64,000 nt of DNA from a virus, in the IMG/VR virus record IMGVR_UViG_3300045303_000221, positions 23,893 to 87,892 of that record; one strand, given 5' to 3'. Below the pieces are notes generated by a model, which saw only the letters and a program-made list of their open reading frames with translations, had not been told where the DNA came from and made no database searches. Of this stretch, positions 8,215-33,721 are shown piece by piece; positions within the stretch are counted from its first letter, which is position 1; each line of letters starts with the position of its first letter. Made by a program: the position numbers and the translations under genes.

Positions 8215-8269
8215 CTAGCGCACGGTGTGTGTTACAATTGAGGTGCGGGGACGACCCCCGCAGAGAGGA
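8215..8269 (+). promoter_or_regulatory. conserved promoter + hairpin + RBS
   Basis: CTAGCGCACGGTGTGTGT-TACAAT...TGCGGGG-ACGAC-CCCCGCA-GAGAGG. Confidence 0.8.
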
Positions 8270-31300: not shown

Positions 31301-31451
31301 CTTCGACCACGTGCATCGGCCGGACGGGAAGATCAGGATCGTGAAGGCGCTGCGCGACGCGCGGGACGCGCCGATGTACCGCAGCGACCTGCTCTCGCAG
31401 GAGCATCGCGAGGCGGCGCTGAGGTCAATCGGCGCGTACGATCCGGACTAG
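28287..31451 (+). CDS. MuF/gp7-like head morphogenesis protein fused to a zincin peptidase
   Basis: HTPDC...GKVW...PPLHHGCPC; AHELLH...LEEALVE; tag VEARWERRFPKGTDRAGQF. Confidence 0.8.
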   Translation: MATDTDPLRARLRALTEQVVAAEPPPVEEPPARPDAVTAATGLAAALAAGGAVAPVVVGVQAYKQGADTVMAGTAMVLAALAHQAGQMDVAEIVAAAMDDPVFADDDIEQAIQAERAMQETFVRKQRARVKRDLPKALKLEDAAERRAAVQKLVEREKRYSQQRIEALRERLAGMAEMKRVEAQSPGGALWLLSDGVKVHTPDCIAMSGKVWPWPVLKLWHPPLHHGCPCILVGIPDALKQGLIKPGMIPTDHADAVKRARAIMRKAQRLEEVAAEGEVEAYLEAVEARWERRFPKGTDRAGQFMPRRGGSARALLRDLVPRQPRRRVTRIGGHRVVIPEERSFKRTIGDHTYTSPPGTTKVLRDGKPLGRDPGGEKHDLTLTRPTGDLRPSTPEREALAKVLNGAQADTLTGMRYAGVEEGLLAHGFIPVAVKGEDPLNRYFYRHPSGSTMTLNLVRWASGRMEVGVAYYSPAQVPVRADYPRASRPPETWDEFLKDATALAANIAERTNAHLGLGTIATSEHLTDHTGDHSWDGDIRLAPNVMADVQDALNKQARGETITLPSPVYRAYHTTAHELLHAINAGTAGDYHTQGGRTLEEALVEELSHVVAQELLSDHGLGEVAQWAANNPSKDAARGTYIGFRATLDGMLNDAGVPAADRPGLLWAMKTGMQTDDRLEFLAALMKTDVEAVRGRLTSNATGKDMAEYLPMVAASTRPVVTPGVFRMGGEQVGRGALLRLKDGTITRVADVGDQNGVVFAWTDDEEGHVHLVTEGDVDRVLTPPTSRGDQGRSLALRWEGAAEHEDVAIGDVIDFGDGTHGRVEDVFGRGSATAIRVATDQGSVWVTEKRRTVHPIKVTTGRGPEMEEPPEAKATGTQSIIDAGFGKAEQAGEELMLLQSVPHLLRMSLHRVLVRQRELQRIVGRDPMAANADVVEAEAELRRIERLIKAREAARDARAKAFKREHGYWAITQAEYDAAMDEPNVTTDDPHVALPGGVVAPKSVIFDHVHRPDGKIRIVKALRDARDAPMYRSDLLSQEHREAALRSIGAYDPD

Positions 31452-31471
31452 CTCAAGGTGTGCGATACGCT
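31448..31471 (+). promoter_or_regulatory. conserved promoter copy
   Basis: CTAGCTCAAGGTGTGCGA-TACGCT. Confidence 0.6.
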
Positions 31472-31478
31472 GTGGGGC

Positions 31479-31679
31479 GTGTCCGCTCTCCCTGAATCCC
31501 GGCCCGAGGTGCTGATGCCTGGGGCGTCGTCGTGCGCCGGTCTGACGCCGTACGAGCCGCTGGGCCTGCCGGGCGGCGAGGTGCTGCGCAGGCGGGTCGA
31601 GGCGCGGCTGCGGCGCGAGGGCTACAACGTGGAGGGCCTGGCTCGGGAGATCGTGCGGATGGCTGAGGAGTGCCTGTGA
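31479..31679 (+). CDS. hypothetical protein
   Basis: GTG 7 nt after -10. Confidence 0.45.
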   Translation: MSALPESRPEVLMPGASSCAGLTPYEPLGLPGGEVLRRRVEARLRREGYNVEGLAREIVRMAEECL

Positions 31680-31692
31680 GAATGGAGACGAC

Positions 31693-31878
31693 ATGGCCTA
31701 CCTGGTGAACATCGCGCACGTCTGCGGGAAGGACGGGTGCTCGGCGCGTGCGACGGTGCAGCTTTACAACCTCTCCAACGCGCCTGCCGGGTGCTACTGC
31801 AAGCGGCACGGCGACGCGGCGCTGCGCGAGATGAAGCAGCGCGAGGACGACTGGTGGAAGGCGCAGCGAGAGGCGTAG
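31693..31878 (+). CDS. small Zn-finger protein
   Basis: CGKDGC..RA.......GCYCKRH. Confidence 0.6.
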   Translation: MAYLVNIAHVCGKDGCSARATVQLYNLSNAPAGCYCKRHGDAALREMKQREDDWWKAQREA

Positions 31879-31982
31879 TGGCGGAGCACAAGCTCATCGT
31901 CATCGCCGCGTTCGTCCTCGTCGTGATCGCCGTCGTGTGGGTGATCCTGGCGGTCGCCGCGAGCAAGAGCGACGAGTCGTAG
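31878..31982 (+). CDS. small single-TM protein
   Basis: TAGTG coupling; hydrophobic. Confidence 0.5.
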   Translation: MAEHKLIVIAAFVLVVIAVVWVILAVAASKSDES

Positions 31983-31984
31983 GG

Positions 31985-32338
31985 TCAGTGCTTCCGGCCC
32001 TTGTGGCCCTTGTGGCCCTTCCCCTTGGAGTGGCCGCGGGACGAATCTCGGCGGGGTTTCGTCCCGGCCTGACGGACGGAGCGCACGACGACTCGCCGGA
32101 CGACGACGTGGACGTGGTTGACGACCCGCACCTTCTCGTGCGTGACGGTGACCGGCGGCGGTGCGGGCACGGTGACGGGCGGCGGGGCGGGCGTCGTGAC
32201 GGTGGTCGTGCGGATGATCGGCGCGGGCGCGGCCGAGGTCGCAGCGGGCTGGCGGGCGACGTGCGTGGTGATCGCCGCGCTGGTGCTGACGCCGAGTCCG
32301 GCGGCGGCGAGCATGGCTGGGATGAGCGCGCGGTGCAC
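31985..32338 (-). CDS. secreted low-complexity protein
   Basis: Signal peptide, PVTV repeats, GHKG tail; leaderless TAGTGT-N7-GTG. Confidence 0.6.
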   Translation of the reverse strand: MHRALIPAMLAAAGLGVSTSAAITTHVARQPAATSAAPAPIIRTTTVTTPAPPPVTVPAPPPVTVTHEKVRVVNHVHVVVRRVVVRSVRQAGTKPRRDSSRGHSKGKGHKGHKGRKH

Positions 32339-32445
32339 GCGGTTGACACTACCCGCCGACGCCGATCCCGAATCCGGTAGTCTCCGCGCCGGAGGCGACC
32401 GTCGGGCGTGTACCGCGAAGCCGCGACCCGGCGGGCCTCCACCTA

Positions 32446-32521
32446 GCGCGGCTGGGCAAATGGTAAAGCCACCCGGTTCAACCCTCGGGAGACAGTCTGG
32501 GTTCGACTCCCAGGCCGCGCA
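32446..32521 (+). tRNA. atypical tRNA (Leu-CAA-like or pseudo-tRNA)
   Basis: Acceptor GCGCGGC/GCCGCGC; D arm GGC-AAATGGTAAA-GCC; anticodon arm CCCGG-TTCAACCC-TCGGG; T arm CTGGG-TTCGACT-CCCAG; discriminator A then CCT. Confidence 0.8.
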
Positions 32522-32522
32522 C

Positions 32523-32726
32523 CTACGGCAGAAGCGGCGGCGGCTGCTGCGTGATGGTGACCGGCGGCACGACGGTCACGGTGGTCACGACCGGGATGGT
32601 GAAGATGACCTGGCGCGGCTTCGGGGCGCTGATCGTGGTGGCGTAGATGAGGCCGACGCCGACGCCGAACACGAACAGCGCGAGGGCTGCGAACAACGGT
32701 GCTGCTATGCCGCGCGTCTCATCCAC
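32523..32726 (-). CDS. small membrane protein
   Basis: TM + Thr/Val/Pro tail; leaderless TACACT-N6-GTG. Confidence 0.55.
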   Translation of the reverse strand: MDETRGIAAPLFAALALFVFGVGVGLIYATTISAPKPRQVIFTIPVVTTVTVVPPVTITQQPPPLLP

Positions 32727-32753
32727 GGAGCGAGTGTAACGACACGGCGGCAT

Positions 32754-32775
32754 CGCGCACGGCGTGCGTTAGTAT
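32754..32775 (+). promoter_or_regulatory. conserved promoter copy
   Basis: CGCGCACGGCGTGCGT-TAGTAT. Confidence 0.65.
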
Positions 32776-32783
32776 GCGGTGTA

Positions 32784-32936
32784 ATGCTGATGCTGTACCT
32801 GATCTTCAAGGCGACCGCCGCGTTCCTCATGGCGGTGTTCGTGCTCGGCCTCCTGAGCATCGCCGCGCTCGTGTGGCTGACCGTGGAGGTCGCCCGGATG
32901 ATCGCCGAGTGGCGCGGCGACCAGCGTCGCGCGTAG
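32784..32936 (+). CDS. small membrane protein
   Basis: Hydrophobic 50-aa ORF. Confidence 0.5.
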   Translation: MLMLYLIFKATAAFLMAVFVLGLLSIAALVWLTVEVARMIAEWRGDQRRA

Positions 32937-32956
32937 CGCACAGCGTGTGTTACACT
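32934..32956 (+). promoter_or_regulatory. conserved promoter copy
   Basis: TAGCGCACAGCGTGTGT-TACACT. Confidence 0.75.
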
Positions 32957-32961
32957 GGGGG

Positions 32962-33150
32962 AGTACGACGATACCAACGGTCAAGTCGCGAGTGACCAAC
33001 AGGGGGCTGAAAGATCCTTCGGGAGCACGGACCACTCCCGCCCCCGATCAACCGCGAAGGTCAGGTGTCGCTGGTTCTGACAGGCAGACGCTCCCCCCGA
33101 CCTCACCGTGTGGGGAGCGCCGCTGGGTTCGACTCCCGGCAGCGACGTAA
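32962..33150 (+). ncRNA. structured RNA ending in a tRNA-like domain
   Basis: GCGA- and UUCG-capped hairpins; 33067-33146 cloverleaf GTCGCTG/CAGCGAC with T arm CTGGG-TTCGACT-CCCGG. Confidence 0.7.
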
Positions 33151-33185
33151 CGTAGGGCGGCACCAGCCGCAGAGAGGAGCACGAC

Positions 33186-33473
33186 ATGCACGAGGGAACG
33201 TTCGTGACGCTCACCGACCTGACCCGCCTGTCGATGATCGTGAGCATGGCGGGCCGGTGCGCGAAGGTCGCACGGCAGGTGGACGGCGTTGGCATCGTCT
33301 ACGGCCAAGCTCGCTCGGTCGGCGACGAGCGCGGCAACTTCACGCCGAGCGGCGGCAACGTGATCGGCGAGTACCTGCGCGTCACCACGCGCGAGGGGAT
33401 GGAGGCGTTCTGGCCGGTCGAGGACCTGGCCGACGAGATCGCCAGCGGCCACTTCGCGGAGTACGACTGGTGA
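33186..33473 (+). CDS. hypothetical protein
   Basis: Hairpin-AGAGAGGAG RBS. Confidence 0.65.
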   Translation: MHEGTFVTLTDLTRLSMIVSMAGRCAKVARQVDGVGIVYGQARSVGDERGNFTPSGGNVIGEYLRVTTREGMEAFWPVEDLADEIASGHFAEYDW

Positions 33474-33721
33474 CCGTCATCCCCGACCCGCTGATCACGA
33501 TCGAGATCCGCGCCGAGTCGCCGCCCTACGAGCGGCAGATGGGCGTGGACATGACGGGGCAGATCCTCGTCGCGGGCAACGTCGTCTGGGAGACGGAAAC
33601 CGAGTTCGCGAAGGGCATCCCGGACGAGCCGGAGCGGGTCGAGCGACTGCTCCGAACGAAGTGCGAGGTGCGACTCGGCGACGCCCTGGCGATCCTGCTG
33701 CGAATGCCGGAGCCGCTGTGA
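33470..33721 (+). CDS. hypothetical protein
   Basis: GTGA coupling. Confidence 0.55.
   Translation: MTVIPDPLITIEIRAESPPYERQMGVDMTGQILVAGNVVWETETEFAKGIPDEPERVERLLRTKCEVRLGDALAILLRMPEPL

Follow-up and report, generated by a model that had tools for sequence, protein, structure and literature searches.

The one tRNA gene that ARAGORN calls in the phage record studied here is a short tRNA-Leu(CAA) with an intact body and an altered anticodon loop, and we read it tentatively as a decoding-impaired, probably still leucine-chargeable remnant of a lost or shrinking tRNA array. The probability of this reading, which depends on the comparison of sequences, is put at about 0.45. The window, i.e. the whole stretch of DNA analysed, consists of 64,000 nt (bases 23893-87892 of IMGVR_UViG_3300045303_000221), and the record has 87.9 kb, 70% G+C, an estimated completeness of 74% and a soil origin.

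In the whole record the single ARAGORN tRNA lies at 32446-32523 (+) and is labelled tRNA-???(caac), corresponding to an 8-nt loop. The full RNA reads GCGCGGC UG GGC AAAUGGUAAA GCC A CCCGG UUCAACCC UCGGG AGACAGU CUGGG UUCGACU CCCAG GCCGCGC A CC-U, and the tRNA-Leu(CAA)-class gene proper, positions 1 to 73, occupies 76 nt at 32446..32521 (+) according to ARAGORN and the class model R1 (see below). On the same strand, the acceptor stem GCGCGGC / GCCGCGC (32446-32452 / 32514-32520) forms 7/7 Watson-Crick pairs and is followed by the D arm GGC-AAATGGTAAA-GCC (32455..32470), a 3-bp stem with A14, A15 and G18G19. The anticodon arm CCCGG-TTCAACCC-TCGGG (32472..32489) is closed by G31.U39 and carries the 8-nt loop UUCAACCC (TTCAACCC in DNA; 32477..32484) with the anticodon CAA at 32479-32481. 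The variable loop AGACAGU (32490..32496) has 7 nt, the last U being able to form A15-U48, and the T arm CTGGG-TTCGACT-CCCAG (32497..32513) has 5/5 pairs. A73 stands at 32521, and the 3′ trailer CCT (32522..32524) encodes CC without the terminal A and overlaps the TAG stop (32525-32523) of a reverse-strand ORF at 32523-32753 in the ORF list.

A sequence-only reading of this DNA had described perfect acceptor and T arms, a 3-bp D stem, A73, either an 8-nt loop or a 7-nt CAA loop with a bulged U, a pyrimidine at 37, a variable region of 7 nt and the end A-CC-T; all of these are present, and ARAGORN, named there as a check, calls the gene with the four-base anticodon. In the alternative fold of the anticodon arm the 7-nt loop is TTCAACC with a bulged U, so that C follows CAA in both versions. 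The calculated RNA energies are −32.7 kcal/mol for the cloverleaf with the 8-nt loop, −30.9 for the bulged-U version and −33.1 for the MFE; the 8-nt-loop form is thus 0.4 kcal/mol from the MFE, and the bulged-U version lies 1.8 kcal/mol above it. All of the 20-21 stem pairs are intact, and the canonical 7-bp acceptor, 5-bp T stem, T loop UUCGACU and GG in the D loop AAAUGGUAAA are found, while a canonical 7-nt anticodon loop with U33 and purine 37 is not. The general Rfam tRNA model RF00005 (gathering threshold 29 bits) gave no match in the whole record, and the best tRNA-clan score of the gene was 22.4 bits, with tRNA-Sec. A reading with UCA (opal) as the anticodon was dismissed because no stem register places these letters in a 7-nt loop. 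Function on the reverse strand was likewise dismissed, since it is the + strand to which all homologs correspond and on which GG of the D loop and UUCGA of the T loop fall into place; a minus-strand Rfam match to Plastid-ycf2 (30 bits vs a threshold of 65.7) is the mirror cloverleaf.

Bacterial tRNA-Leu normally carries a long variable arm (class II). The phage tRNAs returned by pattern scans of IMG/VR with the D arm of the window gene are 74-77 nt long and form a coherent set: their D stem has 3 bp and the loop AAAUGGUAAA, their variable loop comprises 5-6 nt and usually begins with AG, and they have A73. Their anticodons are those of leucine only (UAG, CAG, UAA, CAA), and they are encoded in phages whose G+C content ranges from 32 to 67% and in one Streptomyces mobile element (members L004-L010, L042, L088-L094, L107:259-413 and L112:781-857). 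The D arm is the same as that of the window gene in L004-L010 and reads GGC-AAATGGTAAA-GTC in L042 and L088-L094. Among 24 members 99.4% of the stem cells are paired and double-sided changes occur in 18 of the 20 pairs, and by this covariation the class is kept under structural selection. Its members share the 3-bp D stem, A73 and a variable loop of medium length, and these are therefore traits of the class rather than aberrations of the window gene. In 185,579 bacterial/archaeal species genomes the pattern used to find the class gave just 7 hits, counted as pattern matches alone, and a literature search for phage tRNA-Leu with a short variable arm found no paper.

The training set of the covariance model R1 comprised 11 phage short-variable-arm tRNA-Leu genes and excluded the window gene. 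The model matched the window gene with 72.7 bits (E 3e-18) over model positions 1-74 of 74, the sole match in the 64-kb window; scores were 77-95 bits for the training members and at most 48.5 bits for non-Leu tRNAs. The leucine identity rules for bacterial LeuRS have been documented, together with the finding that the enzyme can do without the anticodon arm of the tRNA (PMC9976931). The bacterial identity set, A73, A14, A15-U48 and G18G19, is complete in the window gene, in which the 3′ part of the D loop also contains an A, and the T loop U54, U55, C56 and A58. Since all of the LeuRS identity nucleotides are present, charging with leucine may reasonably be expected. The Leu-like character noted in the sequence-only reading is thus borne out by its D arm, A73, A15-U48, G18G19 and the R1 score, and by these sequence features the gene is a phage short tRNA-Leu(CAA), an assignment that we regard as firm. 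The more solid by-product of the study is the class itself, a coherent group of 74-77-nt leucine tRNAs without a long variable arm in phages and a Streptomyces mobile element, which fits the finding that bacterial LeuRS can dispense with that arm.

Three genes are the closest homologs of the window gene. A tRNA-Leu(CAA) of 74 nt was found in G003 (IMGVR_UViG_3300037510_000569), a related phage of 135 kb, at L107:340-413, with the sequence GCCCCGC UG GGC AAAUCGGCAAA GCC G CCCGC UUCAAAC UCGGG AGCUU CCAGG UUCGACU CCUGG GCGGGGU A; it scores 48.3 bits with RF00005, as against no match for the window gene. A lone tRNA-Leu(CAA) occurs in a mobile element of Streptomyces sp. CC53 (NZ_MKXB01000189.1, L112:781-857; CCCGA UUCAAGA UCGGG AGACU), and a third one in L042 (IMGVR_UViG_3300028800_000219) has the arm CCCCG CUCAAGA CGGGG and the variable loop AGUUUU. 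The stems of the window gene and of its G003 counterpart differ by compensatory changes on both sides of four pairs (3-70, 5-68, 50-64 and 51-63), with zero broken pairs; UUCAA, the 3′ anticodon-stem strand UCGGG and the T loop are common to both. The phage short tRNA-Leu(CAA) genes resemble the window gene in the 7-bp acceptor, U8, the 3-bp D stem, the D loop AAAU(C)GG(U/C)AAA, CAA after U33, the 3′ strand UCGGG, the AG-initial variable loop, the T loop UUCGA(C/G/A)U, A73 and, in the high-GC members, an absent or partial CCA. They differ from it in the 7-nt anticodon loop, the purine at 37 and the variable loop of 5-6 nt.

The lesion can be located by this comparison. The loops of the homologs all have 7 nt (UUCAAAC in G003, UUCAAGA in CC53, CUCAAGA in L042), and UUCAACCC is found in the window gene only; a 7-nt loop with purine 37 is likewise present in all of the at least 12 class members examined, the window gene with its CAA followed by CCC being the exception. 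As U39-CGGG is retained in G003 and CC53, the extra base of the window gene lies in the anticodon loop, where CCC has taken the place of R37-N38 (AC or GA) of the homologs. Starting from an ancestor like G003, the path would require one A-to-C change and one inserted C. The variable loop has 7 nt as against 5-6 nt in the homologs (AGCUU, AGACU, AGUUUU) and is longer by two bases, AGACU having become AGACAGU. No CCA is encoded in G003 and CC only in CC53, so that the incomplete CCA of the window gene is ordinary; completion of the end is needed, as had been claimed, but it is needed in these high-GC homologs as well. An incomplete CCA is normal wherever a CCA-adding enzyme is present. Alignment with the three closest homologs leaves the CCC 3′ of the anticodon, with its 8-nt loop and pyrimidine 37, as the one true anomaly. 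The description of the gene as an aberrant tRNA consequently holds for the 3′ side of the anticodon loop, while the D stem, the variable loop and the partial CCA are normal for the class.

The phage belongs, by its portal homologs, to a large family of uncultured phages, in which the tRNA content varies widely. The members G002, G003 and G005 (130-135 kb) have 19-25 tRNAs each, while G001 (portal 64% identical, 88% complete), the closest relative compared, and G004 gave no tRNA with RF00005, and G001 gave no Leu tRNA with R1. The presence of 19-25 tRNAs, including the canonical ortholog, in distant members and the lack of a Leu tRNA in the closest relative compared are what suggest the status of a remnant. 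The same status is supported by the failure of the general tRNA model on the window gene, by the lack of a second instance of its loop and by the lack of an upstream promoter palindrome. The sequence-only reading had taken lack of expression together with degeneracy across related phages as the sign of a pseudogene, and this is half borne out: the odd loop is conserved in no relative, a canonical Leu(CAA) being found in G003 and no Leu tRNA in G001, which leans to a decaying gene. In the mechanism that we propose, the transcript would be released by RNase P and 3′ trimming, its end would be finished by the CCA-adding enzyme and it would be charged with leucine, but UUG would be read poorly because the purine-37 platform is gone and the loop enlarged. 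The sub-lineage would be shedding its tRNA array, and the window gene would be a recently crippled member of it rather than a purpose-built decoder.

Phages quickly delete useless DNA. With the stems and tertiary nucleotides intact, this would mean that the inactivation is recent or that the gene is still selected. In being a single survivor, absent from the closest relative and missed by the general model, the gene resembles the tRNA pseudogenes of decaying phage arrays; typical ones, however, have broken stems, and here none is broken. Further observations argue against a remnant. UUG is used 109 times (6.2% of the Leu codons of the phage), so that there is work for a UUG reader; pyrimidine 37 and 8-nt loops recur in tRNAs of phage loci; and a conserved non-decoding tRNA-like RNA 545 nt downstream indicates that the lineage keeps tRNA-shaped RNAs for other uses. 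As the record is 74% complete, the status of the gene as the last tRNA is unproven. If it is a relic, it would give a snapshot of array loss in which the loop fails first and the body is still perfect, and it would illustrate that tRNA-??? calls with four-base anticodons require comparative support.

Searches for further copies of the loop covered 2.9 million viral contigs and 185,579 species genomes with exact and degenerate patterns, and no second case of the window arm, or of a Leu-type body with the window loop, was found in them. Other matches to TTCAACCC were dismissed as Glu, Gly and opal-type tRNAs whose loop and stem are both spanned by these letters. Among 466 distinct phage-locus tRNAs, a sample partly chosen by a pattern favouring some such loops, pyrimidine 37 occurs in 2.6% and 8-nt loops in about 1%, and because of this recurrence such loops are not automatically dead. 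U37 was observed in five unrelated tRNA-Asp(GUC), a recurrent exception to purine 37, in four viral contigs (L030:5919-5992, L063:10651-10722 (-), L090:8660-8734 and L094:3799-3870) and one bacterial MAG contig (L099:2733-2808). Another observation was that three distinct sequences, L046:3584-3659, L048:1690-1766 (-) and L067:6966-7040, share the same 8-nt loop, AUUUCAAC or UAUUUCAAC, and are labelled tRNA-???(ttca) by ARAGORN; these phage tRNAs may be opal suppressors or readers of UGA-N.

The gene is flanked by the reverse-strand ORFs 31985-32338 and 32523-32753 rather than placed in a 5′ leader. Gene calling based on GC3 puts 98 of the 101 genes of the 88-kb record on the + strand, and these two ORFs are two of the three reverse-strand genes. 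Their proteins are small and of membrane type, with a hydrophobic N-terminal segment, P/T/V-rich repeats (PAPPPVTV..., VVTTVTVVPPVTIT...) and GC3 of 0.88-0.92; no match to either was found in the relatives or in PHROGs, and the relatives lack counterparts of the small genes that surround the tRNA. The recurrent promoter palindrome was not found upstream of the tRNA, its nearby copies being at 32756 and 32937, and scans for consensus promoters and terminators over 31400-33600 found nothing. By eye only, a TANNNT box TAGTCT (32379-32384) and a lone TTGACA (32343-32348) can be seen. The 9-mer ACCGCGAAG stands upstream of both tRNA-like elements of the phage and is weakly enriched, with 4 copies vs 1.1 expected; 2 of 100 shuffles reach 4.

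The second tRNA-like RNA is at 33067-33146 (+), with a leader from ~32964, between the promoter palindrome at 32937 and the RBS of the gene 33186-33473. It has the 7-bp acceptor GUCGCUG/CAGCGAC, shares its T arm (CTGGGTTCGACTCCC) with the Leu gene and carries an 8-bp stem with a 15-nt loop where the anticodon arm would be. Its ortholog in G001 (L115:1501-1575 (-), i.e. G001:64463-64537) conserves the loop letters CGAC.C.CAC.GUG and the downstream AGAGAGGAG leader with the RBS, and a strain variant, T33124C, converts U.G to C-G and strengthens the T stem. This conservation shows that the lineage maintains non-decoding tRNA-shaped RNAs, but the Leu gene is not among the conserved ones. Elements similar to the second RNA, with CUCCAAA loops, were seen in G003 (L107:9130-9210) and G005 (L108:310-388, -). 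We also noticed an unannotated minihelix composed of 6 bp, a 9-nt bulge, CCUGGG-UUCGACU-CCCAGG, 6 bp and A, in a ~100-bp intergenic gap, at L002:1483-1527 in Mycobacterium phage Wildcat (gp156/gp155 gap) and at L003:1483-1527 in Streptomyces phage phiScoe54. It shows a compensatory acceptor change between Wildcat and phiScoe54, receives no ARAGORN call, and occurs in one Streptomyces phage and in 6 records of cluster V mycobacteriophages, two of which are accessions of Wildcat.

Several other explanations of the loop have to be weighed against a fading remnant. The foremost of them, possible by analogy though doubtful, would make the gene a working tRNA-Leu(CAA) whose C37 and extra C were selected to escape a host anticodon nuclease or tRNA-targeting defence, UUG reading being kept while the host tRNA-Leu(CAA) is destroyed. 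The intact body with all of its LeuRS identity elements, the amount of UUG in the phage and the recurrence of pyrimidine 37 in unrelated phage tRNAs are consistent with it, as is the lone gene of the Streptomyces mobile element, which implies that this isoacceptor is worth carrying. The changes are moreover limited to the anticodon loop, where phage tRNAs reportedly differ from those of the host, and such differences have been proposed to evade VapC/PrrC-type nucleases (van den Berg et al. 2023, PMC10264068). In those cases, too, the differences are concentrated in the anticodon loop, but they are substitutions in 7-nt loops and were compared with known host tRNAs and nucleases (PMC10264068), whereas the window gene also has an insertion and has lost purine 37. 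It also weighs against selection for evasion that the window loop was seen in no other phage, that all class members including the G003 ortholog keep purine 37 and a 7-nt loop, and that G001 manages without the gene. The loss of purine 37 combined with an 8-nt loop is expected to cause a strong deficit in decoding. Least probable of all is that the gene works as a natural tRNA of SufB2/sufA6 type for +1 frameshifting or for quadruplet decoding (the latter put forward in the sequence-only reading) and would read UUG-N or GUUG at programmed sites. The 8-nt loop with its extra base 3′ of the anticodon is like that of SufB2 (10.1101/2020.12.31.424971), and ARAGORN reports a four-base anticodon. 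SufB2/sufA6 tRNA-Pro and sufD tRNA-Gly of Salmonella share the 8-membered loop, likewise enlarged 3′ of the anticodon; they are, however, laboratory frameshift suppressors with purine 37 that act on homopolymeric codons (CCC-C, GGG-G) allowing re-pairing, while the window gene has the anticodon CAA, C37 and zero target sites above chance. Every in-frame TTG and GTTG in high-GC3 frames was scanned for a long coding +1 frame. Only three TTG sites qualified, two at the methylase gene end and one at the portal/MuF junction, where the downstream genes have their own start codons; a rough chance estimate is ~3-4, and none of the sites was at GTTG. Re-pairing of CAA in the +1 frame on UUG-N is impossible except in rare contexts, and all large ORFs, including one of 3915 aa, are open under the standard code.

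An unlikely explanation from the sequence is that the gene is a repurposed non-decoding tRNA-like RNA, serving as an RNase P/RNase Z processing or transcript-boundary signal, as a decoy for a defence protein or as a non-ribosomal leucine donor. It would be favoured by the second RNA of the phage, with its shared T arm, its conservation in G001 along with the leader and its stem-strengthening variant, by the acceptor-plus-T-arm minihelices with the same T arm in the intergenic gaps of cluster V mycobacteriophages and phiScoe54, and by the dispensability of the anticodon arm for LeuRS (PMC9976931). The Leu gene, however, unlike the second element, has no conserved counterpart in G001 or elsewhere, retains a near-normal anticodon arm with the ancestral CAA and lies between two reverse-strand ORFs instead of a 5′ leader, and among 39 scanned proteins none was seen that would be a partner enzyme repairing or using tRNA. 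An artefact or integration relic, with the extra C arising from misassembly of a homopolymer or the gene being an attP copy of a host tRNA, is very improbable. The short homopolymer CCC would suit the former, but C37 persists after removal of one C, and 99% of the sampled words of a 6-kb stretch were found in an independently assembled contig set of the likely source sample. Phages often use tRNA genes as integration sites. Here, a complete tRNA is present, beyond a mere 3′ half, its body is the phage-specific short Leu body and not that of a host class II tRNA-Leu, its 25-nt 3′ end has 0 exact matches in 185,579 bacterial/archaeal species genomes, and no integrase was seen among the proteins scanned, so that neither a host tRNA equal to the 3′ part nor a nearby integrase speaks for attP. 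Across these alternatives, it appears rather unlikely from the sequence that a leucine-chargeable body was deliberately kept with a rebuilt loop (C37, 8 nt) for a non-ordinary role, be it surviving or titrating a tRNA-Leu(CAA) nuclease, +1 shifts at UUG or a tRNA-mimic module with 33067-33146. If the odd loop were selected, the gene would be a natural leucine-identity tRNA breaking two near-universal rules, the seven-nt loop and purine 37, and would bear on the ways in which phages counter defences that cleave tRNA, as well as on natural precedents for decoding with an expanded loop.

The phage encodes a large terminase, a portal, a MuF-like protein of 1054 aa, a zeta/AAA_33 kinase-domain protein and the 3915-aa ORF. 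Its portal relatives closest by identity are P0002 (82%), P0003 (79%) and P0004 (72%); no relative of the portal was found in the bacterial/archaeal species genomes, and no loci related by the neighbouring 1054-aa protein were found. Among INPHARED phages there is no close relative, the terminase being at most 32% identical and the portal matching only two archaeal viruses, and DNA matches are confined to a 190-bp stretch in Gordonia phages. The metagenome contigs matched in one scan are only 1.5-4 kb and end short of the tRNA interval; near-identical contig pieces came from four other soil runs, of which none listed spans the tRNA and no variant is reported inside it. The palindrome CRCAC-N3-GTGYG followed by TA is enriched throughout the window, with 59 matches (at most 2 mismatches) vs 24 expected and 0 of 100 shuffles reaching 59, and it usually stands just upstream of small + strand genes, e.g. 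at 8219, 15716, 23049, 32756, 32937, 56792 and 58353 (+).
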